Positions 6,245 through 61,951 of a DNA stretch of 64,000 bases are shown in pieces; position 1 is the first letter of the stretch; every line of letters starts with the position of its first letter. This stretch comes from an uncultured Nitrososphaerota archaeon (GTDB lineage Archaea > Thermoproteota > Nitrososphaeria > Nitrososphaerales > Nitrosopumilaceae), in contig OY969559.1 of the NCBI GenBank assembly GCA_963701075.1, forward strand, positions 128,001 through 192,000. The letters are read 5' to 3'. A model generated the notes under the pieces. It was not told where the DNA came from, searched no databases, and was given only the letters and a program-made list of their open reading frames with translations. The position numbers were made by a program, and so were the translations under genes.

Positions 6245-7159
6245 ATGAAAGAGCAGGGCAAGATATGGATGAACGGCAAACTTGTTCCGTTCAGAAACGC
6301 AAAGGTCCACGTTCTTACCCATGCACTACATTATTCCACTGCAGTCTTTGAGGGAATTAGGTGTTACAAGACAACAAAGGGTCCTGCAATTTTCAGGTTA
6401 CAAGAACATGTTGACAGGCTCTTCAAGTCTGCAAAGATCTATTCCATGAAAGTTCCCTACTCAAAAAAAGTGATCTCAGATGGCATAATCAAGACTGTAC
6501 TGGCAAGCGGATTAAAAGAGTGCTACATCAGACCCATTGCATACTATAGCTATGGAGTTCTTGGCCTTACACCAACGCCCAACAAGATAGATGTGGCAAT
6601 AGCATGCTGGGAGTGGAATACTGGCGAGTCAAGTGCTGGAAAAACTCACGGTGCAAGATGTAAAGTTTCAAGCTGGCTTAGAATTGATTCTAGGTCACAG
6701 CCAATGCAGGCAAAGGCAGCATCAAACTATGCAAATGCTGCGCTTGCAAGAGTAGAGGCCCTAAAAGACGGATATGATGAGGCAATAATGCTAAATTATC
6801 AGGGTAAGGTTTCAGAAGGAAGTGCTGAAAATATTTTCACAGTAAACAAGGGCGAGATAGCTACCCCGCCATTAAATGCCGGAATATTGGATGGAATAAC
6901 AAGAGACAGCGTAATCAAGATAGCAAGATCCGAGGGAATCAATATCATTGAAAGAGAGATTTCCAGGGACGAGCTATATACGGCAGATGAAGTTTTCATG
7001 ACAGGCACTGCTGCAGAAGTCAAATCTGTTACAGAGATTGACAATGTTGCTGTAGGAGACGGCAAAGTAGGCGAGATTACGTGCAAGCTGCAGGATGCAT
7101 TCCATGAGGCATCAAGAGGTAAGGACGAGCGGTTCATAGACTGGCTCACTCCAATCTGA
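6245..7159 (+). CDS. ilvE: Branched-chain amino acid aminotransferase
   Basis: HALHYSTAVFEGIRCY, AKAASNY, EGSAENIF, ILDGITR, FMTGTAAEV. Confidence 0.95.
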   Translation: MKEQGKIWMNGKLVPFRNAKVHVLTHALHYSTAVFEGIRCYKTTKGPAIFRLQEHVDRLFKSAKIYSMKVPYSKKVISDGIIKTVLASGLKECYIRPIAYYSYGVLGLTPTPNKIDVAIACWEWNTGESSAGKTHGARCKVSSWLRIDSRSQPMQAKAASNYANAALARVEALKDGYDEAIMLNYQGKVSEGSAENIFTVNKGEIATPPLNAGILDGITRDSVIKIARSEGINIIEREISRDELYTADEVFMTGTAAEVKSVTEIDNVAVGDGKVGEITCKLQDAFHEASRGKDERFIDWLTPI

Positions 7160-7214
7160 TACCGTGAAAGGTTCAATTACACCTGTACAAGATTATTATT
7201 TTATGGTTCTCTCA

Positions 7215-7376
7215 ATGGTAGACCAACACAAGCCCAAATGCTATATTTGTAGCAATGTGTTTGAAAATTTAGAAGAGCTTCGAGTGCACCAAGAGGTTGA
7301 CCACAAGGAATTTGTAGAGTTTCACAAGGACGTAAATGACCATTCTCCTGCGCCAGGAGATGTCACAGTATTTTAG
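7215..7376 (+). CDS. Small C2H2-type zinc-finger protein
   Basis: CYICSNVFENLEELRVHQEVDH (C-x2-C-x12-H-x4-H). Confidence 0.75.
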   Translation: MVDQHKPKCYICSNVFENLEELRVHQEVDHKEFVEFHKDVNDHSPAPGDVTVF

Positions 7377-7385
7377 GAAAATTGT

Positions 7386-7538
7386 ATGGACCCTGATAAT
7401 TCTGTACACATTTGTTGGTTTTGCAAAAAAGGCCGCCATGACGAATGCATGGAAAAGATTCCGACAGACGCCAAATCAGAAGGGCCACATGACTGTACCT
7501 TTGATACAAAGCTCATAGATTGCCAGTGTTCACACTAG
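7386..7538 (+). CDS. 50-aa Cys/His-rich microprotein
   Basis: Manual translation MDPDNSVHICWFCKKGRHDECMEKIPTDAKSEGPHDCTFDTKLIDCQCSH, starting 9 bp after the zinc-finger gene. Confidence 0.65.
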   Translation: MDPDNSVHICWFCKKGRHDECMEKIPTDAKSEGPHDCTFDTKLIDCQCSH

Positions 7539-7608
7539 ATTGTACCAAGAAATTAGTGCTTGATTTTATTTCCTGACAAAAGTTTTTGGCAAGGCACAAA
7601 AAAATATC

Positions 7609-8181
7609 CTAGACGTTTTTGGGTTTTCTTTTTTGCATTATCACTATGCCTGCCCCAGCGCCTGCTGCAGCAATAGCTATACCAACATAGATGAGTGTGT
7701 TGTCGTTAGTTGGGATTGGGTTTTGTACAGGCACAAAAACCTTGAACTCGCCAATAGCAATTGGGCTGTTTGGCCCATAAATCGAGGAAGGATAATTTGC
7801 ACGCAAAAATACTGGAAAGAGCCCGTCATTTGGGAATGCGTAACTTACAGAGAAGTTTCCATTTGGTACATTTATACTGCTGAAATTATAGTAGCCGCTT
7901 CCACCGGTAAAATTTACAACATTACCAACTGTAACTGAGGCAATAAAATTTTGCAGGGGCTTGCCAGTGGTTGCGTTTATAACATTGAATGTTAGGTTCG
8001 TGTAGTCATTAATGACTGGACTTGACGGGTAATAACTGAACTGCATTATTATTCCGTTTTGTTGTATCTGCTGAACTGGACTGCTTCCAAGCTGTGCATT
8101 TGCAGGCAAGACATGTAAAGTGGTTATCAATATAACAAGCAAAATTGGAACCGCATACAAGCAAAAAAATGGTTTCATCAA
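7609..8181 (-). CDS. Secreted, C-terminally membrane-anchored Ig-like protein
   Basis: Signal peptide, several N-x-S/T sequons, C-terminal TM plus basic tail. Resembles the protein at 17773-18336. Confidence 0.7.
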   Translation of the reverse strand: MMKPFFCLYAVPILLVILITTLHVLPANAQLGSSPVQQIQQNGIIMQFSYYPSSPVINDYTNLTFNVINATTGKPLQNFIASVTVGNVVNFTGGSGYYNFSSINVPNGNFSVSYAFPNDGLFPVFLRANYPSSIYGPNSPIAIGEFKVFVPVQNPIPTNDNTLIYVGIAIAAAGAGAGIVIMQKRKPKNV

Positions 8182-8334
8182 ACTGGTTTGGTAACTCTGG
8201 TACGTAAACCTTTAGGCTATACTTCCATATTGTCCAATAGAATGCTTTAACCCATTACAAATTTTTTATTTTTACAAAAAATAATTCCATTGGCAATATA
8301 GTTTTTATAAGAGCAAACTGCCCACACGTCTATC

Positions 8335-8874
8335 TTGAAGATTCTAGTCTTGGTGTTAGTAGTAATGATGACAGCTGTCATACTACAATACCAAATCAAA
8401 GCGTTCGGTGAAATATCTACTCTTACACCACCTGCAGATACAATTATGGTAAATGGAACAAGTTTCACAATTCCATATACCATTACAGGAGGAACTGTTA
8501 CTTTGATTCAAGCTGATACGGATGCAAAAACGATAGATGTGAATGTACAATCATCAAAGGGCGGCAACTTGACAATAACCTTGCCAACAACACTCATAGA
8601 CGCATATCAAAATGCGTCTCTTGAGCCAACATATATCCAGAATGTAAAAGATATATCTCATTTTGTGGTCATGGACAAAAATCACGGAGTTCATTATACA
8701 GAAGTTGATACCTCTGAAAATAGAACCCTGACCATTCCATTTCGCCTTGGAAATAGTACAGTTGAAATTAAAGGTACACAGATGATTCCAGAATTTGGAT
8801 CCTTGACATCTGTCATACTAGTAATCTCAGTCATTTCCGTAATTATAGCATCCAAGAATCACTTTAGATCATGA
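8335..8874 (+). CDS. PEFG-CTERM sorting-domain surface protein
   Basis: Signal peptide and C-terminal IPEFG + TM + basic tail. Confidence 0.85.
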   Translation: MKILVLVLVVMMTAVILQYQIKAFGEISTLTPPADTIMVNGTSFTIPYTITGGTVTLIQADTDAKTIDVNVQSSKGGNLTITLPTTLIDAYQNASLEPTYIQNVKDISHFVVMDKNHGVHYTEVDTSENRTLTIPFRLGNSTVEIKGTQMIPEFGSLTSVILVISVISVIIASKNHFRS

Positions 8875-9308
8875 ATAAAAGAATCCTAATTGCTGTAGGT
8901 GTGGCAATTGTGGCTATAACACTGACAATCACATATCTTGAACAAGGAGAATCCAAGGTTACTACCGTCAGCAATTCCACATCTAATGTGATACAATCAA
9001 CCAACCAATCTCCAGCTACGACCATTGCCTTTGTCACAGACAAATCATCTTACAGCATGGGAGACGCAATTGTAATCTCAGGTGATGTCAAATCACCAGT
9101 CGCTGGAACTCCAGTAACAATATTGATTCTTGATCCAAATAATTTACTTTTACAAGCTGAGCGAATTTCTGTTTCTCCAGATGGTAGCTTTCAAACTACA
9201 ATCACGACTACCCCTGCTATTTGGAAACTTGGTGGAACATATGCCGTATCAATACAATATGGTTCGTCCAATGTCAAGGCCCAAAAAACATTCTACTTTG
9301 CAGGTTGA
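8871..9308 (+). CDS. Membrane-anchored Ig/MG2-like domain protein
   Basis: N-terminal TM and TDKSSYSMGDAIVISG...DPNN...GTYAVSIQYG. Overlaps the upstream gene by ATGA. Confidence 0.75.
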   Translation: MNKRILIAVGVAIVAITLTITYLEQGESKVTTVSNSTSNVIQSTNQSPATTIAFVTDKSSYSMGDAIVISGDVKSPVAGTPVTILILDPNNLLLQAERISVSPDGSFQTTITTTPAIWKLGGTYAVSIQYGSSNVKAQKTFYFAG

Positions 9309-9407
9309 GTGTTTGAGTCCTGTAAAACTTAGACTCTCGCAGGTCTGAACCCCAAAAATTCGATATTTGTGCAATATGCATTTTGAGATATACTTTCAGT
9401 TCTTCTC

Positions 9408-10172
9408 TTATTGTAACCTAGGATCATGACAGGTAGGAAGGTAAGAAAGATACGACTTTAGGGTTCCATTACAGTCTTGTTTGATAGTGTTTATTGCATG
9501 AATACAAGTGGTAGAATTAGAAATTGTAGTATTGACACATTCGTTTAGAATGTTTTCTGTTTCGTTGTTAAGGTTATTGAATACTGTTACATTAATTGCT
9601 GTCGAACTGGGGGCAGTGGATTGCTGTGATGGAGTTGTAGTTTGTCCCATGTTTACCATTTGTGGTATTCTTGGATCATCACAGGCTGTCATGTTTGGAT
9701 AAGTAAAACATGACTTTTTAATCTGTAACATCAACGACTGGCACTCTGAAATAGTATTTACATCACTTGCGTGAGAACACTGATCGAGTCCCTGTAATAT
9801 ATCAGCATTCATTTTTGATTCTGTGGATGAACCCTGTGTTTGTGTGCTAGCAATTATACCATCCACTGTAGATAAAAACTGATCAATTCTTGGATCGTTG
9901 CAAGCAGATACAGAAGAGAAAGTGGAGTTACCACATTCGTTTTTAACAAAAGTCATTGTTTCTTTACAATTTTTCAGATCCCCTATTGAAGAGGCATTAT
10001 CACATATAGCAATGGTATTAAGAATTTTTTCATTTATTTGTGATGTTGATTGTTCGGTTTGATTGGTGGTCTGTTGCACTTCATGAAGCTGAGATGGCAG
10101 AACAATTAGAATAATCACAATACCAAAAATAAGACTTGTAATACTAATAATGAATTTACCTACCGCTTTCAT
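9408..10172 (-). CDS. Membrane-anchored protein with three 4-Cys CxDPR repeats
   Basis: N-terminal TM. The repeats end ACNDPR, ACDDPR and TCHDPR. Confidence 0.75.
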   Translation of the reverse strand: MKAVGKFIISITSLIFGIVIILIVLPSQLHEVQQTTNQTEQSTSQINEKILNTIAICDNASSIGDLKNCKETMTFVKNECGNSTFSSVSACNDPRIDQFLSTVDGIIASTQTQGSSTESKMNADILQGLDQCSHASDVNTISECQSLMLQIKKSCFTYPNMTACDDPRIPQMVNMGQTTTPSQQSTAPSSTAINVTVFNNLNNETENILNECVNTTISNSTTCIHAINTIKQDCNGTLKSYLSYLPTCHDPRLQ

Positions 10173-10366
10173 ATAGTTTCTTATAATCTCTGTTGAGTAT
10201 TTATGATTCTCTAACGAAGTTGTAATGAATCCTAAATGCTTCTACGGTTTTTGTTCAAACTCTTACAGGTCTACGCTATACACGTATTACACGTCTTGCT
10301 TTCTGCCTTCGAAATTTTCAAATATTGTCTTTTCTCTGGACAAAGTTGCAAAAGTCTTGACCTGAT

Positions 10367-11467
10367 TTAACAAAGAACAAACGTCGAGCCTTCTAGTAGT
10401 TGTGTGTCTATGTTAGATTGAAATTCTTTTATCATGATACCGTTTGCAGTTGCCGTCATCAGTCCTATTGAAGGATTGTATTGGTTTGTTAGCAATGCAC
10501 TTCCACCAAGACCAGAAAATTCTGTTTTTGGGTACATTGCAATAGACCCTCCTGTATCAGAGGCAAGGCTTGAAAGAAATGCGGTTTCCTGGCTGCCAAA
10601 ACTACACATGGGTTGAGGAACAAACAATATCTCTGATGCTCCGGGCCACAACCCTATCTTGGTTACATTATTCTGCGGAGATACTGCAAAGATATTTCCT
10701 GTACCTGGGTCAGGTACTAGGATATCTCCCCCATAGGTACCAAAGCTTGACGGTGCCACTACCGCACTACCAATTCTATCATGACCACTTTCTCTTATTG
10801 GAATTTCAGCTACTTGCGACGATTTACCATTGGAATTTATTTTCCATACCTGATCTCCTCCTGTAACAATCATATCATATCCAAAGGAACCTGTCCTGTC
10901 AAATGTAATGTATACGTCTGGACCAAGCGGCGGCAGGTTGGTTTCAAACAAGCTTGTCTTGCCGTCAAAACCTATCTTCCAGATGTCAACTTGGCCCCAC
11001 GTACCCTGTGCCAGATAGATATATCCTGTTGGAAATCCGCCAAGACCAGACGAGATGGCAAGATGATCCGTCTGCTGACATCCAAACGGTGCAGGCAAAG
11101 AAGCAATTATTGTCTGCGTGCCGGAATTATCAATTGATAAAATTTCGCTTTGAAAATCATACGAGCTGCAATCATATGCAGTAAATCCTGGACATACTGA
11201 TGCACCTGTCATATCAAAACCGTACTCGTAATCTCCTTGAAGTGCACATGTTCTATGAATGACAAACACATGATTACTATCTGCTGCCACATCGATTGGC
11301 TGATAGACGGAAATTAATGAGATTGCGTTCAAGCCTGATGGCTCGGCTGATACTGATTGACTAAAAAACAAGAAAAACATCATAGACGTTACTGCATATG
11401 CTAGAAAATTTTTTCTGAAAGAAGAGTTGAGTTTATTTGTCAATCTAGTGATAATAACGTGTTTCAT
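10367..11467 (-). CDS. Secreted probable beta-propeller protein
   Basis: Signal peptide and repeated blade-like strands (IWKIGFDG, VWKINSNG, IFAVSPQN). Confidence 0.6.
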   Translation of the reverse strand: MKHVIITRLTNKLNSSFRKNFLAYAVTSMMFFLFFSQSVSAEPSGLNAISLISVYQPIDVAADSNHVFVIHRTCALQGDYEYGFDMTGASVCPGFTAYDCSSYDFQSEILSIDNSGTQTIIASLPAPFGCQQTDHLAISSGLGGFPTGYIYLAQGTWGQVDIWKIGFDGKTSLFETNLPPLGPDVYITFDRTGSFGYDMIVTGGDQVWKINSNGKSSQVAEIPIRESGHDRIGSAVVAPSSFGTYGGDILVPDPGTGNIFAVSPQNNVTKIGLWPGASEILFVPQPMCSFGSQETAFLSSLASDTGGSIAMYPKTEFSGLGGSALLTNQYNPSIGLMTATANGIMIKEFQSNIDTQLLEGSTFVLC

Positions 11468-11520
11468 TAGTAAAAGGGTTTCAGTAGTAAGTTCTTTTAT
11501 AAGTTAGAAAAAAGAATTGT

Positions 11521-12120
11521 ATGGCAATGCCCAAGATAGTGTTCCTTGCAGCTTTATGCATTACCACTACAGGATTATTTGCATTGTCTGAAAATTTTCT
11601 GATATCAAATATGGTACTTCCTGATGCATATGGGGTAGGATCTCACTCAAGGGGTTTTGCCTCACTTATAGGAGTTGATATTGGGCACTGCACCGATTCT
11701 CTTCCATGCAATGTTCATGTATGTGCAGATCACGTGTGCAGTACTGAGGAATGGGAGAAGATGAACCAGCAGATCACCAATCTCCAGTCAAAAAAAATAG
11801 GAAACCTAACCTCGTCTGCAGCGGGAATAATGAATACTGTTGACACCTTTAACATTGGCAGCAACACCTTCACGTCCTTTGTGCAAGTATCATACATTGG
11901 AAACCTTACGGCAAATTACATCGATATATCTCAACTAAACAATGACACCACAATACACAATGCATGGATATCAAGCAACTGGAATGCAGATATAACACAG
12001 ACAGGCGTTGCATTTCATTCTACCAACTCACATATTTCTAATGGCAAGACAATTGATATTACAATGGTGACACAGGGCAAGCCAATTTTCAGGCTTGACG
12101 ACATATCCTTACAAAACTAG
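11521..12120 (+). CDS. Secreted protein with Cys/His motif (CTDSLPCNVHVCADHVC)
   Basis: Signal peptide. The motif is shared with the protein at 33002-33589. Confidence 0.65.
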   Translation: MAMPKIVFLAALCITTTGLFALSENFLISNMVLPDAYGVGSHSRGFASLIGVDIGHCTDSLPCNVHVCADHVCSTEEWEKMNQQITNLQSKKIGNLTSSAAGIMNTVDTFNIGSNTFTSFVQVSYIGNLTANYIDISQLNNDTTIHNAWISSNWNADITQTGVAFHSTNSHISNGKTIDITMVTQGKPIFRLDDISLQN

Positions 12121-12158
12121 ATTCTGTATAATTTACTCTCAAATAATTTTAGAAAATT

Positions 12159-12938
12159 TTATGTTACGACTATCTGAAATGATTGTTCAGGTGACAGAGG
12201 AACTGCATCACGGATTGCATTCCAGACAAATACTTGGATTGTATATGTATCTGCCTTGTCTGGCTGCCATGATTGTGAGGCATTAACTGATTGCATGGCA
12301 GTTAAAATTCCTGTAATCCATGAGAGTGATACCACAATGTCGTCTTTGTCCTTTACCTGTACAAGATAGACAAATGGTTGTGTATCCTGTGTGTTTTGAA
12401 GTTTTGTTGTTATCTGAACCTGTTGTCCGGTCTTTACTGAAGAGATAAGATTGCCATCCGAGTCAGTAATTTGTGGACTGGATGTTTGTATAGACATGAT
12501 GTTAGTTGTAGGCAAGATTAATGCCTTGGCTGTAAAGATCAGTTGCTGCGTTGAAAGATATGGGGGCGGCAGTGTTCTATCAATGTATTCTGCTGTAACC
12601 GTATCTCCCACTGAAACATGAAGTCTATTTCCAGAAGATGAATAATTGGTTGAAAAATAGACATTTCCTGTAAATACGCCTGAGTTTGGCGCAGTTTCTA
12701 CCATTTGAAGTCTTATGCCGCTTTGGTCCGAATCAGACCAGACGCTTGTCTCAAAAGTAGATATCGTCATAGGGTTGAGGCTCAGGTCCCTGTCCACAAT
12801 CTCCACCACACCAGTAGAGTTTGGAGGATAGGTTGATTGCTGCCAATTTATTATCTGATTTTGAGCAGTTACTGTGGAAAATGCTGTCGGCATCAGAATC
12901 AGAAAGAGCAAGCCACTTAGCGATATGATTTTCTGCAA
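12159..12938 (-). CDS. Short S-layer protein paralogue (C-terminal ~230 aa of SlaA with its own signal peptide)
   Basis: Colinear with the C-terminus of 22622-28409: VWSDSD, SSGNRLHVS.GDTVT.EY.D.TLPPPY, VSLSWITG.L, F.VW. Confidence 0.9.
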   Translation of the reverse strand: MQKIISLSGLLFLILMPTAFSTVTAQNQIINWQQSTYPPNSTGVVEIVDRDLSLNPMTISTFETSVWSDSDQSGIRLQMVETAPNSGVFTGNVYFSTNYSSSGNRLHVSVGDTVTAEYIDRTLPPPYLSTQQLIFTAKALILPTTNIMSIQTSSPQITDSDGNLISSVKTGQQVQITTKLQNTQDTQPFVYLVQVKDKDDIVVSLSWITGILTAMQSVNASQSWQPDKADTYTIQVFVWNAIRDAVPLSPEQSFQIVVT

Positions 12939-12994
12939 GCGCTAATGAGTATGTGTAATTGTTTTAATTGGTTTCTTTTTGCCCATGACCAAGC

Positions 12995-13056
12995 TTAGGA
13001 ATTTTAAAATCAGCGGGTCTAGTGGGATTCGCAACCATAGTTCATTTCAGGTTCCG
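12995..13056. repeat. att-like junction repeat A (tRNA-Lys 3' fragment + conserved 21-bp arm)
   Basis: AGCGGGTCTAGTGGGATT (13012-13029) is identical to 15585-15602. CATAGTTCATTTCAGGTTCCG (13036-13056) is identical to 13649-13669. Confidence 0.9.
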
Positions 13057-13143
13057 CCCAGACATTGCCTGCAAGAGCCTTTGTACGAGTGCGCATAATG
13101 ATTCCAAGAATACCAATAATAAGAAGTTAGTAGTAGTTAATAC

Positions 13144-13296
13144 ATGCAGTCCTCTACAAAAAAGTCAAAAGAGATGCCAGAACTATCTCCTGAGACTGAA
13201 GAGAAGGTCAAAATGATCGAATCTGGCAAAGTTACTGGTAAGAAGTATACGCCAGATGAATACATAAAACATATTGAGAAAGTCTTAGAAGATTAA
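13144..13296 (+). CDS. Putative antitoxin (50 aa)
   Basis: Manual translation MQSSTKKSKEMPELSPETEEKVKMIESGKVTGKKYTPDEYIKHIEKVLED, ending 3 bp before a RelE-like gene. Confidence 0.65.
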   Translation: MQSSTKKSKEMPELSPETEEKVKMIESGKVTGKKYTPDEYIKHIEKVLED

Positions 13297-13299
13297 TCC

Positions 13300-13587
13300 T
13301 TGTGGTTTGTTCAACCTGTTGATGATACAATAGATAAGAAACTAAAGAAGTTCAAAAGTAATCAACAACTAGTCAAGAATTACAAAATGTTTATTGTAGA
13401 ATTAAAGACTGCTGACGACCCAAGATTGTTGGGAGAACTTAAGCATGGTAGACTTCAAAATTGTTTTGGCAAACACCTTACCAAATCTCATAGTTTGATA
13501 TATTATGTGGATGTCCAAAAAAGAACCGTCTTTCTAATTGACTTAGATGACCACAAGAATCTTTATGGTAGAGATAACAGAAGTTAG
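13300..13587 (+). CDS. RelE/ParE-superfamily toxin
   Basis: 95 aa, basic, with DPRLLGELKHGRL...SLIYYVD...LIDLDDHKNLY. Confidence 0.7.
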   Translation: MWFVQPVDDTIDKKLKKFKSNQQLVKNYKMFIVELKTADDPRLLGELKHGRLQNCFGKHLTKSHSLIYYVDVQKRTVFLIDLDDHKNLYGRDNRS

Positions 13588-13605
13588 TCTCAGTTACGGC
13601 TGGAA

Positions 13606-13669
13606 TTAAGAATTTTAGAGGCAGCAGGTCTAGTTGGATTTGCTACCACATAGTTCATTTCAGGTTCCG
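13606..13669. repeat. att-like junction repeat B
   Basis: AGCAGGTCTAGTTGGATTTG (2 mismatches to the tRNA-Lys 3' end) followed by the same 21-bp arm as repeat A. Confidence 0.85.
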
Positions 13670-13752
13670 TTTGGTGTCTCATTACTTCAAAAACCTAGAA
13701 GTGCGTGGAGGTTTATAGCATGAACAAGGAATTGTTAACGCATGCACTAGAA

Positions 13753-15465
13753 CTAATTTTTTTCTAGTCTTAATGCAGTGATAAATGATGAACCGTCAGC
13801 TAGAGAAAAATTAATTGTTTTAACTTGCATCTTGTATACGAGTGCAGTGTTTTCAATCGTATAGACTACGGAACAAACTGGATCTTTTTTGGTTTGTTCA
13901 ATTGAAAGTAGAGAACAATCAGGCGGTGTTGGATAGGCATAGATTAGGAAAAGATAGTCATTATCTCTCAAATCTAAAGAGCCTATTTTTTGCATAGGAT
14001 CGTGGAATTTTCCTAATTCTTCCATCTGCGGTAATGTCCATTGTAATGTAATTGGAATAACATTGCCGTTAGTATAGAAAGGAATAACCTTAGCGGTAAA
14101 AAAATCAACGGAGACGATTTTTAAATGATTTTGGTTTGCATAATCATAAATTTTTTCATATACCTTCGAGGTATCAGCAGTAGAAGAATGATCTAGAGTG
14201 TTAAATCCGCTAGCCAGAAGCGGTAGCTGTGTCAACCCAACTATTACAATAGATGAAATAAGTAAATAATTAATTTTTCTCGAAGACAATAGCAATCTTG
14301 CTTTCCCCATATTGTTAGAAATGATATCAAAGCCTTTACCAATAGATAGAAACATGAATGGTAAAATTACGCTCATTTGAATTGGTAAAAATTCAGATAC
14401 TGTAAATGAACTCGATATGAAAATTCCGCTGATTATTAAAAAAATAGATGCAATTCTTCTTGATTCTTTTTTTCTTTTTACCACATACCATATGGAAACA
14501 ATTGTGGTCAATAAGAAAATGGCTGGGAAAACATAACTTGTAACATTCCATGAATGGTTAGAGTTTGCAAATAAAAATGCAACTTGTGGATGAGCTAGAA
14601 AATCATATACATCGTGAATGCGCATACTCATATTAGATATAAAATCAGTGTTAGACGCATGGAGATATGCTGAATTATCTCCCGAAACTGTTTTTGTTAG
14701 AAATGGAATTAGTGAATGAACTGAGCTAATGAAATACCCTACCAGCACATGACTGAACCCAAGGACAAGAGCTGTGCTTGACACAGCAATAATCTTATAT
14801 TTACTTTGGCTGGAGGCTGTAAATCTGTTCTTGAATTTGTTTATCCATAATGGTATAGTAAACATAAACCCAATGATTATCCAGACAAACCAGAGATATT
14901 CGTAAACACCAATTCCGATAAGTAATAATGCAACAAACAGATAGCGATGTTTAAGTGTCCTGAGATATCGTATACCAAATATTAAAACAAGCAACGCTAT
15001 GCAAAGATCTGACCAATCATACAATGCTGACTGCCTAGAATAAAAAACAAATGACGGTAGAATAGAAAGTAGAGATGCAGAGATCATACCTACTTTCTTA
15101 CAAAATATTTCTTTACCTGTAAAATACGTTAAAAATAATACTGAAATGGCCATAACCATTTCGTATATTCTTATTGCAGTAACGCTTATACCAAAAAAAT
15201 ACAAAAAAGGAGTTGAAAGATAGCTTGCTATGCCATTTCCGTTATACTGTTGCCATGCTAAAGGATATGGTCCTATATGTGCTCCCCACTGACGTGAATA
15301 ATGATACAGATCTGAATTGTCAGAAGAAATTAATGATAAAGACATTATAGATGGCGAAGTTTCGTCTGCCCAAAGTGGCGGCAAACCAAAATCATAGAAA
15401 TGGAATCCAGATGTCACAAGTGCAATGGATAAAAGAAAGTACAATTCAGAGTTTTTGAGAAACAT
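13753..15465 (-). CDS. ArnT/PMT-like (GT-C) multi-pass membrane glycosyltransferase
   Basis: PPLWADE after TM1, FFGIS..AIR, P.FVFYSRQ, many TMs. Visibly AT-rich. Confidence 0.8.
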   Translation of the reverse strand: MFLKNSELYFLLSIALVTSGFHFYDFGLPPLWADETSPSIMSLSLISSDNSDLYHYSRQWGAHIGPYPLAWQQYNGNGIASYLSTPFLYFFGISVTAIRIYEMVMAISVLFLTYFTGKEIFCKKVGMISASLLSILPSFVFYSRQSALYDWSDLCIALLVLIFGIRYLRTLKHRYLFVALLLIGIGVYEYLWFVWIIIGFMFTIPLWINKFKNRFTASSQSKYKIIAVSSTALVLGFSHVLVGYFISSVHSLIPFLTKTVSGDNSAYLHASNTDFISNMSMRIHDVYDFLAHPQVAFLFANSNHSWNVTSYVFPAIFLLTTIVSIWYVVKRKKESRRIASIFLIISGIFISSSFTVSEFLPIQMSVILPFMFLSIGKGFDIISNNMGKARLLLSSRKINYLLISSIVIVGLTQLPLLASGFNTLDHSSTADTSKVYEKIYDYANQNHLKIVSVDFFTAKVIPFYTNGNVIPITLQWTLPQMEELGKFHDPMQKIGSLDLRDNDYLFLIYAYPTPPDCSLLSIEQTKKDPVCSVVYTIENTALVYKMQVKTINFSLADGSSFITALRLEKN

Positions 15466-15586
15466 ATCCTTAACTTATAAAAGATGCTTCTAAATAAACA
15501 CGCATTCCCAAGTGAGAATGGGTTTGTCAAAATTTAAAATCTTGATTACAATTTTTCATTTCATATTGAAATCTAATTCATAAAAG

Positions 15587-15676
15587 CGGGTCTAGTGGGA
15601 TTTGAACCCACGACATAGGGATGTCTCCGAAAAGATCATAAGAGTCCCTCGCTCTACCTGGCTGAGCCATAGACCC
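15587..15676 (-). tRNA. tRNA-Lys(CTT) with 16-nt intron at 37/38
   Basis: GGGTCTATGGCTCAGCCAGGTAGAGCGAGGGA-CTCTTA[TGATCTTTTCGGAGAC]A-TCCCT...GTGGGTTCAAATCCCACTAGACCCG. Confidence 0.92.
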
Positions 15677-15730: not shown

Positions 15731-16328
15731 TTAGTTTTTGACTGTCTCGATTTGAGAATATTTTTCCAGTATTTTTGTCAATACTGTAGAAACTGGAACA
15801 TTGTTCATCTTCTCTTTTTCTTCCAAGAGTTTTCGGTATGCATCAAGTGTGATGTATACTGGAATTGAACCATTGCCTTCCAATAGTCCACGAACTCTGT
15901 ACAGCGCAGTCTCCATTCCCTTCTCGGCAACTTTTGCAAACTTGACCTTGTTGAGAATTCCACCCAGAGGACCAAATGGCATTTCATAGTTTACTGTCAT
16001 GGTAACGCGGGTTGATTTCTCACCCAGTTCCTTGAACTCTACTGAAATATTCCATGCTTTGAATGGTCCTTTGATCATTTTCAGCTGCAATCTTTTGTTC
16101 TGGTATAAACTCAGTTGTTTCACAGTCCCACTCTAGTCTCTTGCCATCAAAGTCACCTATCACTCTAAAGGTTGTACCTACACCCATTCCTGCCTTTACA
16201 TCCATAGGAACTACGGTCATTCCTACTCGCTCTTCGAACTGGTCAGAAATGTGCTCTGGTCTTGCAAAGTATGTAAAAACATTCAAGGTCTTCTCTTTGA
16301 TGTCAATTGATTTACTGACAGATGTCAT
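15731..16328 (-). CDS. SRPBCC/START-domain (polyketide cyclase-like) protein, split by +1 indel at ~16085
   Basis: MTSVSKSIDIK...EFIPEQKIA / KMIKGPFKAW...YEMPFGPLG. Removing one base at AGCT 16083-16086 gives 199 codons. Confidence 0.8.
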
Positions 16329-16459: not shown

Positions 16460-17744
16460 GGTTCTGTCAAGTTTATTGCTCATGAACTATCAAATAGATC
16501 GCAGTTATTGCAAAATAACCTCCTGATTTATTATATCGTATCAGCAGAATCTCCACACACTTGTTAGCTACCAAATCCATCAAACAATCATACCAACAAA
16601 ACAATGATCTTGACAGCATGATGGAAACATTTCGACAGATGGTAAACTATTGTATAAGATTGGGTCTTGAAAGCAATATTTCCACTCTAAAGAAATTCTC
16701 ATCACTTCATTACAAAGATCTAGAAAAATACAACATTCAATCAAAATACAAGCTTACTGCCATGTCTCAAGCTTGTGGAAGACTTGCGCAAATGAAAAAA
16801 GACATTAAGAAAGGCAAAACTCCAAAGTACCCATACGTACAGAAATCGTTCCTAGTCTCATGTTATGGCTTCAAGATAAACGGTCAATTACTTTCAATCC
16901 CAGTAGGAGATAGAAGACACATCCACATTATACTGAACTATCATACACAAGCAATTCTCTCAGACAAATCACTCAAGGTCAAATCATTTGTAATCACACC
17001 AGATTCAATCAGCCTTTGTGTACAAAAGGAAGTTGAAGAGATTGAATGCAATAGCACCATTGGAATAGACAGGAATCTACGAAATGTCACAGTAGGAAAC
17101 CATGATAAAGTAACAATGTATGACATGTCAGATATACCAGAAATCACACATCGTGCAAAAAAGATTATCTCATCATTCAAAAGAAATGACCATAGAATAA
17201 GACAAAAAATCTACTCCAAGATTAGTAATAGAAGAGCAAGAAGAGTAAAACAATTCCTCAACAGAATCTCAAAAGACATTGTACAAAAAGCAAGAGAATC
17301 CAAATCCATAATAGTATTTGAAGATTTGAAAGGTATTCGTAAACTCTACAAAAAAGGAAATGGTCAAGGGAAAAAATATCGTGGAATTATGAATTCATGG
17401 TCATTCTACGAGTTACAGAGACAGATACAATACAAAGCAGACTGGAAAGGAATTCCAGTACGATTTGTATCACCAGTACGCACCAGCATACTGTGTCCAA
17501 TATGCGGGGATAGAACCCAAGAGGATAGAGCACAACATCGTCAAGTTTGGTGCAGCAGTTGTAAAAAATTAATGGATCGTGACATTGTCGCAGCCATGAA
17601 TATCTCTTACAAGGGGTTGCAAAAGTTCTGCAATCCTAGTGGGCTTTCAGAAAAAGCAATGAGGGGGAACTTGGATAACGCAATGCCAGTAATCCTCCGA
17701 GTCGATGGAAGCAAGTTATCTCAACAACCAGAGATGACAGAACT
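16460..17744 (+). mobile_element. Non-autonomous TnpB element 1 with imperfect terminal inverted repeats
   Basis: Left end AGGTTCTGTCAAGTTTATTGCTCATG is 23/26 identical to the left end of element 2. Right end TGACAGAAC at 17735-17743. Confidence 0.7.
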
Positions 17745-17766
17745 TATTAAAGAAAAAGACCAGTAA
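16561..17766 (+). CDS. tnpB: TnpB (Cas12f-like) RNA-guided nuclease
   Basis: RuvC-I GIDRN, RuvC-II VFEDL, zinc finger CPIC..CSSC, RuvC-III DRDIVAAMNI. Confidence 0.92.
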   Translation: MLATKSIKQSYQQNNDLDSMMETFRQMVNYCIRLGLESNISTLKKFSSLHYKDLEKYNIQSKYKLTAMSQACGRLAQMKKDIKKGKTPKYPYVQKSFLVSCYGFKINGQLLSIPVGDRRHIHIILNYHTQAILSDKSLKVKSFVITPDSISLCVQKEVEEIECNSTIGIDRNLRNVTVGNHDKVTMYDMSDIPEITHRAKKIISSFKRNDHRIRQKIYSKISNRRARRVKQFLNRISKDIVQKARESKSIIVFEDLKGIRKLYKKGNGQGKKYRGIMNSWSFYELQRQIQYKADWKGIPVRFVSPVRTSILCPICGDRTQEDRAQHRQVWCSSCKKLMDRDIVAAMNISYKGLQKFCNPSGLSEKAMRGNLDNAMPVILRVDGSKLSQQPEMTELIKEKDQ

Positions 17767-42123: not shown

Positions 42124-43403
42124 GGTTCTGTCAACTTGATGGCTCATGGCAGGCATTGTAAACTTCTTGAGATATATCACAATTACCTGCTCTTTTAAGA
42201 AGATCAAAGATATCAAAAGCCTACCGTGTTATCAGTCAAATGTGTAACACAGAACCATCGCTGTGCCGAGATTGTACCAGTGATGAAGGATTTCAGGTCT
42301 GTTGTAAACGATGCAATAAAGCTGGGTATCGAACATAACATTACTTCGAGATTTAAACTACGAAGCCTGGTCTATCCAAGGTTTAACAAGATGATGTATT
42401 CTGGATATGTCTATACCGCAATTTGGAAGGCTTGTGCCATGCTCAAAAACTATCGCAGAACAAAAAAGAAGAATGCTCATGCCAGGATACCTGTCATGAA
42501 AAGTCACATCCTTGTAATTGATAACCAGAGATACGAGATAATCCACAACCATCTCAAGTTTCCAGTCAGGCCTAGGCAGTTTGTATACATTCCTCTCAAT
42601 CACTACGTTTGTAAAATTTTACTGCAACCAGGTCTGAAACTTGGTGAGGTTACATTAACTGAAGAAAAACTCTTCATATCTTATACAAAAGTGATATCCA
42701 AAAAGGAGCCAAAGGGATACATTGGAATTGACATGAACCTTGAGAACGCAACTGGCACAGATGAAAGCGGCACCACTACAATAGTAGACACATCTGATAT
42801 TGTATCAATGAAAGCAAAATACAGAGATGTACTGTCGCACTTTACAAGAAATGATGCCAAGATACAAAAGAGACTCAAACAAAAATATGGCAAGAAACAA
42901 AAAAACAAAGAAGATACATTCCTGCACCAGAAATCAAAGGAGATTGTATCACAAGGCAGGCAGGTCATAATGGAGAATCTCACCGGAATAAGAAGATTGT
43001 ACAGAAAAGGAAATGGTCAGGGAAAAAGGTTTAGGTTCAGACTAAACTCGTGGTCAAGATTCAAGTTGCAAAAGATGATAGAGTACAAGTCAGTTGATTG
43101 TAACGGCCTTGAAGTGATTTACATAAAACCAAATGGGACTTCATCGAGGTGTGCGACATGTGGGTCAAAACTAGTACCCGAAGAGCACCGAATGATGAGA
43201 TGTCCCTCCTGTCGTGTTACCACAGACAGGGACAAAAATGCCAGCAAGAATATTCTGGCTAGAGGCTTGGCAATGCTGGAACAGAAAGAACCAGCACGGT
43301 TCGAGCCTGACGCAGTGCAAGGTGAAGCGATGAAGCAGTTCAAAGATGTGGAGCAGATTGCACCGAGTCTACTTGTTGGACGAGCCATCAAGTTGACAGA
43401 ACC
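42124..43403 (+). mobile_element. Non-autonomous TnpB element 2 with perfect 22-bp TIRs and target-site duplication
   Basis: GGTTCTGTCAACTTGATGGCTC at 42124-42145, inverted at 43382-43403. Flanks are TAATCTTA and TAATCTTG. Confidence 0.9.
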
Positions 43404-43416
43404 TAATCTTGTGTGA
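42226..43416 (+). CDS. tnpB: TnpB (Cas12f-like) RNA-guided nuclease
   Basis: GIDMN, IMENL, CATC..CPSC, DRDKNASKNI. Confidence 0.92.
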   Translation: MLSVKCVTQNHRCAEIVPVMKDFRSVVNDAIKLGIEHNITSRFKLRSLVYPRFNKMMYSGYVYTAIWKACAMLKNYRRTKKKNAHARIPVMKSHILVIDNQRYEIIHNHLKFPVRPRQFVYIPLNHYVCKILLQPGLKLGEVTLTEEKLFISYTKVISKKEPKGYIGIDMNLENATGTDESGTTTIVDTSDIVSMKAKYRDVLSHFTRNDAKIQKRLKQKYGKKQKNKEDTFLHQKSKEIVSQGRQVIMENLTGIRRLYRKGNGQGKRFRFRLNSWSRFKLQKMIEYKSVDCNGLEVIYIKPNGTSSRCATCGSKLVPEEHRMMRCPSCRVTTDRDKNASKNILARGLAMLEQKEPARFEPDAVQGEAMKQFKDVEQIAPSLLVGRAIKLTEPNLV

Positions 43417-60385: not shown

Positions 60386-61951
60386 TCAGGCTATAACTTG
60401 ATAATCTCGATTACTAAAGATCTTGTAAAAAAGATAGATTTGGGGAGCAATTATGACTGCAAACGATGCTACAAAAGCCTTCATCCCTAACAATTTGAGC
60501 AAAAAGATATCAGGCTGCAGATGTGTAAAGGCAACCAAGATTGCTTGCGTTAAGGGACTGAACTTGAAGGTCCAAAGAATGGCCGGATTTATCCACAGGT
60601 CATTGTGAACAGTTCCAAGACTAAACAAGCCATGATTACAACTGGGAAGACACCAGACAAAGTAGATGGCATCTTGTATCATATACACGAAATTAAAGAA
60701 AAACCCAAGAGCTGCTAGCCCTAATAACGCAATCTTTAGAGCAGTTTTCTTTCCGATCTCTAGAGTTGCGCCTAAAGGAAGAAGTAGGAACGGGATCACC
60801 TCAAGCAGGTATCTTGGTCCCCATGCAACCAGTCCATGCCATGCATTCAAGTTTCCATAATAAACTAGGAAAATAATTACAAAGGCAAGAAAGAGTAGAG
60901 ACTCTTTTCTGTTTTTCTTGTAAAAAGCAAAAAATGAGAAAAAGGCGGTTACCATAATAGGGCAAAATACAAAGAGCCCCACACCAGGGCTCAGTAACAG
61001 TCCGTAGATCGCTATTGGTAACGGCGTATTATGCGTATGTTGCCATGTTGCGCCAAGTCCCTGCTCAGAGCCTGCAAATGAGGATAATAGTGTAGTTCCA
61101 TCACGAATAAAGTTTGTCAATATGTAAATTCCATAAAAGCCAATAAGCGGAACTATAAAAGAGGTCAATTTCTTCAGTTTGCTAGTCTTTTGTCTCAGGT
61201 CAATCAGGAGGAACAAAAGTAGCGGAATTATAAAGAGAATAGCGTCAGGTCTTACAAGAAATGAGAATCCAAAGGATGATCCAGAATAAACAAGGTTTGG
61301 ACCCCCAAGCTTTTGGTATCTTCTAAAAAACAAAAACCCTAACAAATCAAAAAATGTTCCAGGTACTACATTGAGAGATGTTTTTGAATATGCCCATACA
61401 ATGGTTGTAAAGGCAAAGAGAATCGCAAGAATCGTCGAGTTTTTCTGATTGAAGTCAAACGAACGAGACACTAGAAAGAAAACTCCTACAGAGAGGGCTG
61501 AAAACATAGGACCATAAAAGAATTGTAGGAAATTGAGATCAGGATCCAAACTGTTTCTCCAATATACATAATTTGGATCATCGAAATCATCATTTGTCAA
61601 TACCAAAGTATTATTTGTCATAATGTGAAGATAATGGTTGACAAAAACAAATGGTACCTCAGTAGCACTGTGGCCAACATATGCTACACTACAGATTATT
61701 GCATTTCTGCAAGCAGGACCGGTGCTATCAGGATAAATTAGTGGATATTCAAAGTTGATTTTTGATACACCTGGTATGTATCCAGGAGTCGGTTGACCTG
61801 TCACCATTCTGATTGTCTGCTGCTCTGCAACATCCTCATCAAAGGTAAACCGATGCCCATCTTCAGTAAAAAGGAAAACTGAAAATGAAAAAATACAGAT
61901 CAAGACTACAATCCATCTGTCCATGCTTAATTTGTTTTTTGTAACAATCAT
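60386..61951 (-). CDS. Multi-pass GT-C-like membrane glycosyltransferase
   Basis: FDED after TM1, T.VWAYS, LLLSPG.GLF.F.P, WGPRYL. Confidence 0.7.
   Translation of the reverse strand: MIVTKNKLSMDRWIVVLICIFSFSVFLFTEDGHRFTFDEDVAEQQTIRMVTGQPTPGYIPGVSKINFEYPLIYPDSTGPACRNAIICSVAYVGHSATEVPFVFVNHYLHIMTNNTLVLTNDDFDDPNYVYWRNSLDPDLNFLQFFYGPMFSALSVGVFFLVSRSFDFNQKNSTILAILFAFTTIVWAYSKTSLNVVPGTFFDLLGFLFFRRYQKLGGPNLVYSGSSFGFSFLVRPDAILFIIPLLLFLLIDLRQKTSKLKKLTSFIVPLIGFYGIYILTNFIRDGTTLLSSFAGSEQGLGATWQHTHNTPLPIAIYGLLLSPGVGLFVFCPIMVTAFFSFFAFYKKNRKESLLFLAFVIIFLVYYGNLNAWHGLVAWGPRYLLEVIPFLLLPLGATLEIGKKTALKIALLGLAALGFFFNFVYMIQDAIYFVWCLPSCNHGLFSLGTVHNDLWINPAILWTFKFSPLTQAILVAFTHLQPDIFLLKLLGMKAFVASFAVIIAPQIYLFYKIFSNRDYQVIA

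Follow-up and report, generated by a model that had tools for sequence, protein, structure and literature searches.

Short elements that lack an integrase and lie in tandem at a tRNA gene have one close counterpart by concept and another by target. The streptococcal cis-mobilizable elements (CIMEs), the nearest described concept, are reported to be flanked by attachment (att) sites, to carry no integrase or transfer genes of their own, to occupy the 3' end of a target gene in tandem and to accrete by repeated site-specific integration, and one example is likewise at a tRNA-Lys gene (PMC5704250). By target, the nearest are the thaumarchaeal elements NitAQ6f-E4 and NitAQ6f-E5, integrated in tandem, and NitClo-E1, which are tabulated as residing in tRNA-Lys(CTT) with att sites from the same core region as at the locus considered here, in a survey where att cores are short, with a median of 17 bp (Krupovic et al. 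2019, PMC6563490, Table S2). Those elements are 16-34 kb long and were defined by their integrases, and the smallest element given in that survey measures 2.6 kb and has an integrase (PMC6563490). The locus described here lies in a window of 64,000 nucleotides (the whole stretch analysed; positions 128,001 to 192,000 of contig OY969559.1, assembly GCA_963701075.1) from an uncultured Nitrososphaerota archaeon. Two cassettes of 1962 and 611 bp stand in tandem behind its tRNA-Lys(CTT) gene, and each ends in a partial copy of the tRNA 3' end joined to a conserved arm. The cassettes are probably non-autonomous, att-bounded mini-elements that were assembled one by one through site-specific recombination by a recombinase acting in trans.

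Integrons comprise arrays of small single-function cassettes with one recombination site each, which enter at one end of the array, include toxin-antitoxin (TA) cassettes and vary in content between strains. Integrative mobile elements exploiting Xer (IMEX) are small modules with short dyad-symmetric sites whose recombinase is encoded elsewhere. The pdif modules of Acinetobacter plasmids are described as similarly small, often carrying TA or single adaptive genes, with short dyad sites and a recombinase located elsewhere, as is proposed for the present locus. In the accounts of both pdif and IMEX modules, however, host XerC/XerD acts at dif-like sites, on plasmids or at dif, whereas the present site combines a tRNA 3' end with an arm, and mobile-element integrases are the candidate enzymes. 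The Tycheposon islands of Prochlorococcus represent successive tRNA-anchored integrations with partial tRNA copies between the elements and degenerate remnants further in; as described, Tycheposons have their own integrase and the integrase-less material of the islands is degraded and without clear boundaries, in contrast to the bounded cassettes with a conserved site seen here (10.1101/2020.12.28.424599).

Two cassettes behind tRNA-Lys(CTT)

The target gene encodes tRNA-Lys(CTT) with an intron (15586-15676, minus strand; ARAGORN, and 60.4 bits for Rfam RF00005) and constitutes the attB side of the locus. An 18-mer, AGCGGGTCTAGTGGGATT in the plus-strand reading, comprises half of the T loop, the 3' strands of the T stem and the acceptor stem, the discriminator base and two trailer bases. 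It is present without mismatch inside the 3' end of the functional tRNA gene (15585-15602, minus strand), where it forms the first copy of the att core and the proximal junction. As the initial annotation had noticed, it recurs at 13623 (copy B, two mismatches) and at 13012 (copy A, no mismatch). No fourth copy was found in the 64-kb window at up to three mismatches, and none of 100 shuffled sequences gave three matches. The identical 21-mer that had been reported beside both distal copies, CATAGTTCATTTCAGGTTCCG, has exact copies in the window only at 13036 and 13649 (two matches in 0 of 100 shuffles). The similarity claimed for the opposite flank is likewise present, with GAATTTTA located 6 nt ahead of both distal cores (12999-13006 and 13610-13617).

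Measured from start to start, the repeats are 611 and 1962 bp apart, in agreement with the earlier estimates of a 0.61-kb TA unit and a 1.96-kb unit with a single GT-C gene. Cassette 1 (13623-15584, minus strand), delimited by the repeat spacing, the 18-mer boundaries and its open reading frame (ORF), holds the GT-C gene and ends in unit B. This unit spans 13607-13670 (minus strand; nhmmer 61.1 bits, E=3.5e-17) and consists of an arm containing the 21-mer (13649-13669), a core with two mismatches (13623-13640) and the start of the next cassette. Cassette 2 (13012-13622, minus strand), delimited by the repeat spacing, holds the TA pair and ends in unit A, the outermost junction of the array (12996-13060, minus strand; nhmmer 69.0 bits, E=1.2e-19), where the arm with its 21-mer (13036-13056) and a core without mismatch (13012-13029) are followed by a native-type trailer that includes GAATTTTA.

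The ORF of cassette 1 (13753-15465, minus strand) encodes a membrane glycosyltransferase of 570 amino acids (aa) that belongs to the GT-C (PMT_2) family, with a PF13231 score of 33.1 bits against a cut-off of 26.1; the public record of this protein uses a later start and gives 483 aa. It has 14 homologs, the best of them, itself excluded, at 57% identity, and it is 49% identical in aa sequence to the GT-C proteins encoded at two related loci (L002 and L004; loci of relatives are numbered in this way below), which match the profile likewise and are oriented oppositely relative to their unit. Cassette 2 encodes a putative antitoxin of 50 aa without a family match (13144-13296, plus strand) and a putative 95-aa toxin of the RelE/ParE superfamily (13300-13587, plus strand). 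The toxin matches the ParE-like family PF15781 (E=5e-5) and YafQ (TIGR00053, E=1.2e-4), both below the cut-off, and weakly resembles the PDB profiles of HP0892 and RelE (E 0.19-0.72); all seven of its homologs match PF15781 at E<=0.01, again below the cut-off. The two ORFs, the first ending at 13296 and the second starting at 13300, have the layout of a type II TA operon, and homologs of the antitoxin, and the pair as such, are kept in six array loci.

The att-bounded array ends at copy A and comprises two cassettes. No att copy further out was detected in the whole window by 23-mer, 18-mer or unit-profile searches, and the trailer that follows copy A resembles the trailers at two empty sites (L024 and L031). 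In addition, the genes at 7609-9308 have homologs that lie past the outermost att copy in both L009 and L010, so that these genes are chromosomal. Between copy A and a gene for a 190-aa protein, a stretch of 4.8 kb (8215-12995) bounded by no att copy contains six ORFs whose products are secreted or membrane-anchored and match no Pfam family; in L009 the 190-aa gene comes right after the outermost unit.

Copies A and B resemble each other along some 100 bp, and both carry the same deviations from the tRNA in the T-loop part. Their greater similarity to each other than to the tRNA might come from a tandem duplication of the tRNA 3' region in place, without any mobile element involved. Such a history is nonetheless very improbable: the DNA between the repeats is unrelated, with a GT-C gene in one interval and a TA pair in the other, the same unit terminates different cargo in seven other genomes, and TA cassettes within one array are just 54-64% identical. 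A motif restricted to this site, accompanied by a simple local duplication in relatives, had been named beforehand as the outcome that would speak against tandem cassettes; instead, the unit is present in other genomes and no simple duplication was seen.

The site and its units in relatives

Related loci were collected by scanning a collection of contigs for the SRPBCC gene that adjoins the tRNA and taking 10-kb flanks, which yielded 57 loci. One of these (L057) is a spurious bacterial match; the source genome is not part of the set, and its closest members are Nitrosotalea-like, at 94-95% aa identity. The SRPBCC protein has 1273 homologs of about 198 aa, from Nitrosopumilaceae or Thaumarchaeota where named. 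In 54 of the 57 loci the tRNA core, with up to three mismatches, comes after the SRPBCC gene, and the adjacency is therefore kept in relatives; ARAGORN often mislabels the intron-bearing tRNA-Lys gene in these genomes. The backbone order is cox genes, SRPBCC gene, tRNA-Lys, a variable stretch, aminotransferase (6245-7159 in the window), aspartokinase, GT28 and tRNA-Val. In the window itself, the SRPBCC gene (15734-16328, minus strand) carries a frameshift near 16080-16096 that places residues 1-83 and 78-198 in different frames; it may be a pseudogene or reflect a sequencing error, and the 198-aa gene is intact in relatives.

A profile built from the arm-and-core units was searched against the window and all related loci, 675,456 bases in total. 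Strong matches (>30 bits) occur only behind tRNA-Lys, four of them in L004, two each in the window, L009 and L032, and one each in L001, L002, L014 and L017; no other part of the loci or of the 64-kb window gave one. L046, from Nitrosotenuis, contains a weaker version of the unit that scores 20 bits. The unit measures about 46-58 bp and comprises an arm of about 28 nt, an imperfect dyad that holds CATAGTTCATTTCAGGTTCCG, followed by the 18-nt tRNA-derived core; all units have the orientation of the tRNA. Over the 46 columns of arm and core the mean identity of 13 units (78 pairs) is 83.4%, compared with 28.2% over the 47 columns upstream and 33.4% further downstream, and the conservation has sharp edges at the arm. 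The value is 84.2% between units of cassettes with different cargo. Derivation of the 21-mer from a diverged anticodon arm or part of the tRNA intron was ruled out, as an ungapped comparison by eye gave roughly chance identity upstream of the T arm.

Single-function cassettes, TA cargo and a common terminal site recall chromosomal integron arrays, and a true integron would have a dedicated IntI-type integrase and an attI site beside the array that captures attC cassettes. That the locus is one is hardly conceivable. The entry site is the 3' end of a tRNA, no integrase was found in the 64 kb or next to the arrays of relatives, and folding of both DNA strands of units A and B gave z values of -1.04 to +0.26 against 200 shuffles each, so that the unit forms no attC-type hairpin better than shuffled sequence does. 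The intI, foldable attC and attI entry that define integrons are all missing, and with them the intI/attI/Pc platform, and the TA cassette here has its own upstream region. The label 'integron-like' in the initial annotation fits the behaviour of the cassettes and not their parts.

Integrase-less cassettes of 0.6-1.9 kb with the terminal unit stand behind tRNA-Lys in seven Nitrosotalea-like relatives, and decayed copies are present in two more. As first proposed, the two units of the window are discrete single-function cassettes that share one recombination-type site in tandem at the tRNA 3' end. Cargo at the array loci includes RelE/ParE-like TA pairs of three subtypes, with 54-64% mutual identity even inside one array; a Fic/Doc protein with a small partner (L001, L002 and L004); GT-C proteins of 551 aa (L002 and L004); a hexapeptide acetyltransferase with a deacetylase-like protein (L009); and a metallo-beta-lactamase-fold protein (L008). 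The order from the tRNA outward in L004 is Fic (753 bp), TA (663 bp), GT-C (1899 bp), TA (712 bp) and native trailer, and in L002 it is GT-C (1886 bp) followed by Fic. The small ORF beside Fic/Doc (L001 7273-7506; L004 1440-1607) is chimeric, with an N-terminal part like a TA antitoxin and a different tail; together with about 150 bp of common DNA beside the unit, this suggests recombination between cassette types.

Among the 49 informative loci, each extending at least 600 bp past the tRNA, 11 are empty or nearly so, with 378-750 bp between the tRNA and the aminotransferase gene, where the window has 8426 bp. The locus L032 equals L031, L024 and L029, all empty relatives of it (backbone identity 91.6-92.4%), with cassettes of 668 and 612 bp added; in an alignment of the L032 outer flank with the tRNA trailers of these relatives, identity is 70.6-71.4%. 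Similarly, the outer flank of L004 begins with the trailer of the empty L003 site. The comparison of strains that had been suggested at the outset thus revealed differences in cassette number, order and cargo, and empty sites in close relatives. In the clade of the window (92-96% backbone identity) the content of the site is different in every genome: GT-C and TA in the window, Fic, TA, GT-C and TA in L004, one other cassette in L008, and integrase elements in L005 and L010.

Cassette similarity does not track backbone similarity. Along its full length, the window TA cassette shares 87.7% identity with the second cassette of L032, while the backbones are 84-85% identical near the tRNA and 74-75% in the cox and aminotransferase genes; with the fourth cassette of L004 it shares only 78.7%, the backbones being at 95.4-95.6%. 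The Fic cassettes of L002 and L004 are 99.1% identical over 437 bp at different array positions, compared with 89.5-90.2% for the backbones and 87.0% for the GT-C cassettes. Empty sites, differing content and this incongruence together call for repeated precise gain or loss and fit the vertical descent of a fossil poorly. The presence of similar arrays with other cassettes across the Nitrosotalea-like lineage points to a lineage-wide cassette hotspot rather than a local oddity.

Homologous recombination between strains could in principle reshuffle arrays through the tRNA, the units and their flanks as short homologies, with no site-specific recombinase acting today. The homology between units and native trailers runs about 12-16 nt beyond the 18-mer, which gives 50-60 bp at about 83% identity, and module exchange between tandem integrated elements has been described (PMC8371274). 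We regard this explanation as improbable, since the homologies are short and imperfect, all units are oriented as the tRNA, and the sharp conservation edge at the arm and the dyad within it fit a protein-binding site better than neutral homology.

Other features around the locus include two TnpB/Cas12f-like ORFs (PF07282) on the plus strand of the window, at 16561-17766 and 42226-43416. A copy with 78% DNA identity lies between the SRPBCC gene and tRNA-Lys in L009 (10439-11646), which suggests that an insertion sequence-type TnpB element moves around the tRNA-Lys locus. A large surface-glycan island (28585-63998) encodes GT2 and GT4 proteins, sulfotransferases, dTDP-rhamnose enzymes, an ABC-2 exporter and DUF4214/methyltransferase proteins, and contains a second PMT_2 protein (60386-61951).

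Integrases at the same tRNA gene

The absence of an integrase noted in the initial annotation was borne out by the scan with PF00589, which matched none of the 53 ORFs examined across the window. Directly behind tRNA-Lys in 11 of the 49 informative loci, by contrast with the array loci, stands an intact ORF of 414-464 aa that belongs to one of two divergent families, int1 (L005, L006, L015, L027 and, in reverse orientation, L010) or int2 (L007, L040, L041, L044, L045 and L047); fragments are present in L042, L046 and L049. The elements of both families in these 11 relatives use the same tRNA-Lys core. No sequence profile of Pfam, NCBIfam or the PDB recognized int1 or int2, and the TAL-effector matches that profile searches returned were dismissed as repeat-driven noise. 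Alignment of the proteins revealed a conserved G-x-R box, a later R, a G-H box and a Y, which may represent the catalytic pattern of tyrosine recombinases. For the int2 protein of L007, the model in the ESM Atlas superposes (TM 0.72/0.86) on a cluster of which 89% of the members match PF00589, and 20 of 52 full-length relatives of int2 match PF00589 at E<=1e-3, six of them above the cut-off; several public sources label int2 relatives 'integrase'. AlphaFold2, given an alignment of five sequences, modelled int2 poorly (mean predicted local distance difference test score 57.1), and the result was not used for fold comparison. By language-model features, int1 is nearest to a cluster named 'putative site-specific integrase', with PF00589 in 24% of its members.

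In three int2 elements (L041, L046 and L047), the opposite side of the core borders on a palindrome akin to the arm; 17-18 of 26 positions agree, as many as in 0-3 of 2000 shuffles. The P' arms of L007, L040, L044, L045 and L042 lack this palindrome. A resemblance of the P' ends of the TA cassettes to the L041-type int2 palindrome was also considered, and the alignment was unconvincing; these ends are instead similar to native tRNA trailers. Another protein of the int2 family, P0374, shares 62% identity with the L007 enzyme; its gene seems to be on the source contig, outside the window. A recombinase in trans, as the initial annotation had imagined it, would thus have candidates in the two tyrosine-integrase families found at the same tRNA in 11 relatives, among them P0374 on what is apparently the same contig; that part of the early proposal stays conditional.

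Further integrase genes and elements were seen in relatives. An element of 6.6 kb in L010 (2383-9014), between the tRNA core and a distal core with two mismatches, carries the reversed int1, two NHL-repeat proteins, a plastocyanin-like protein and an exosortase/archaeosortase-type protein. In L012 an int1 homolog (10779-11960) stands next to tRNA-Val, and in L031 an N-terminal int2 fragment (11782-11922) comes after tRNA-Val, which suggests that both families also use this neighbouring gene. In L046 (Nitrosotenuis), two integrase-less units stand behind tRNA-Lys (6644-9543): the first, 1.93 kb, encodes DprA/SLOG-like and PRTase-like proteins with an int2 stub at its start, and the second, 0.95 kb, a PIN-domain protein.

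The integrase-bearing elements give substance to another explanation, in which each cassette is the inert leftover of such an element after deletions, the units are conserved through related parents and nothing moves. Elements of this kind occupy the same site in 11 of the 49 informative relatives, fragments survive in L042 and L049, and the loss of the integrase after integration is the cause to which integrase-less archaeal elements have been ascribed (PMC8371274). Reduced related elements had also been offered as the alternative in the initial annotation, and it is true for some loci, namely L046 with its stub and the decayed units of L008, L020 and the third position of L009, while the two mismatches of core B also speak for it; no remnant or common cargo, however, ties the Nitrosotalea-type cassettes to an autonomous parent. 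Integrase fragments were found neither in the window nor in the array loci L001, L002, L004, L009, L014, L017 and L032, and the cassette cargo is absent from every integrase-bearing locus captured. Independent deletions would repeatedly have to yield cassettes of 611-753 bp with the same tight layout, and to leave a unit of about 83% identity within neighbouring DNA that cannot be aligned. Empty sites in close relatives demand recent gain or precise loss, and a Fic cassette 99.1% identical across backbones of about 90% identity is equally difficult to reconcile with inert remnants. We therefore consider this explanation unlikely, while it is the most serious of the competitors.

Several observations nevertheless weigh against cassettes assembled by a recombinase in trans. 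Searches of the window with tblastn, using four integrases of relatives and P0374 as queries, gave no credible match. P0374 belongs to the int2 subfamily without the arm-like palindrome in its P' arms, and the closest relatives of the window carry int1 rather than int2. In L046 the stub (aa 5-79 of int2) heads a unit of 1.93 kb that ends in arm-like sequence, so that a comparable 'cassette' in another genus begins with an integrase remnant, which shows an origin by deletion there. Some cassettes are fossils, given the two mismatches of core B, the decayed units of L008, L020 and L009 and an in-frame stop codon in the toxin gene of the second TA cassette of L032 (6453-6737), the product of which is otherwise 91.6% aa identical to the window toxin. 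The cassettes may be mobile at the present day, although excision products or circles are beyond what sequence can show. The searches for the unit and the 21-mer in relatives covered the SRPBCC-anchored loci rather than whole genomes. Finally, most relatives are represented by metagenome-assembled contigs, in which misjoins may occur at a repeat of 50-60 bp, and this weakens the evidence from cassette order and incongruence. The window contig and L009, from Nitrosotalea sp. TS, are less exposed to misassembly, and on their evidence the arrays as such are real.

Compared with CIMEs, the cassettes have the att sites of autonomous elements at the same target, namely int1 and int2 elements in 11 relatives and the published thaumarchaeal ones. 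As to an origin by deletion, another mark of CIMEs, the Nitrosotalea-type cassettes show neither an integrase remnant nor common cargo, and L046, from another genus, shows such an origin. As described (PMC5704250), CIMEs are bacterial, derive from decayed integrative and conjugative or integrative and mobilizable elements and measure several kb or more, whereas the cassettes here are archaeal, 0.6-1.9 kb long and limited to one function, have no trace of a parent and share an arm conserved across species. Measured against tRNA-targeting integrative elements, they have the terminal direct repeats of the tRNA 3' end and the empty sites in relatives and lack an integrase of their own.

Proposed mechanism and meaning

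The probable assembly by site-specific recombination would have proceeded as follows. Two mini-elements, one with a GT-C glycosyltransferase and the other with a RelE/ParE-type TA pair as their single functions, would have been inserted successively into the 3' end of tRNA-Lys(CTT) by a tyrosine recombinase. In the circular form of a cassette, arm, 18-nt core and a short stretch resembling a trailer would together make up the attP site, and after integration each cassette would end, on the side distal to the tRNA, in an attP-derived unit of dyad arm and core. The internal cores hold acceptor-stem changes that would hardly be tolerable in a working tRNA, and the tRNA is intact; strand exchange presumably took place near the 3' edge of the core, and therefore the whole block of arm and core would come from the incoming cassette and land distally. 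New cassettes would enter at the tRNA and displace older ones outward. The TA cassette, which adjoins the native trailer, would then be the older of the two. If a pair of units, or a unit and the tRNA core, recombined with each other, the cassette or cassettes in between would be excised. The recombinase may be supplied in trans by integrase-bearing elements of the two divergent families that use the same tRNA-Lys core in relatives.

A broader proposition, to be held tentatively, is that the Nitrosotalea-like lineage runs a cassette-capture system at tRNA-Lys(CTT), in which the unit of about 58 bp serves as a portable site and an integrase with its gene at another place inserts, excises and reorders single-function cassettes for TA pairs, Fic/Doc proteins, glycosyltransferases and sugar-modifying enzymes. 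Att-bounded elements that are non-autonomous and stand in tandem at a tRNA gene are of a known kind; notable here are their miniature size and single functions, the strongly conserved portable site and the spread through an ammonia-oxidiser lineage. In a literature search that left subscription journals mostly uncovered, no earlier description was found of bounded integrase-less archaeal cassettes below 2 kb with a common arm.

If it exists, the capture system would do in archaea, from a tRNA anchor, what integrons and pdif modules do, and the logic of integron and dif modules, a portable site with an enzyme in trans, would have arisen on an archaeal tRNA-integrase platform. Surveys that define integrated elements by their integrase will miss such cassettes, for which the conserved unit provides a handle in searches of genomic and metagenomic sequence. 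The genomes of ammonia-oxidising archaea are small and streamlined, and gene exchange in this group has few known routes. Cassettes of 0.6-2 kb gained and lost behind one tRNA would, if the proposition is true, provide these organisms with a cheap means of varying surface glycosylation and TA or defence content among close strains.

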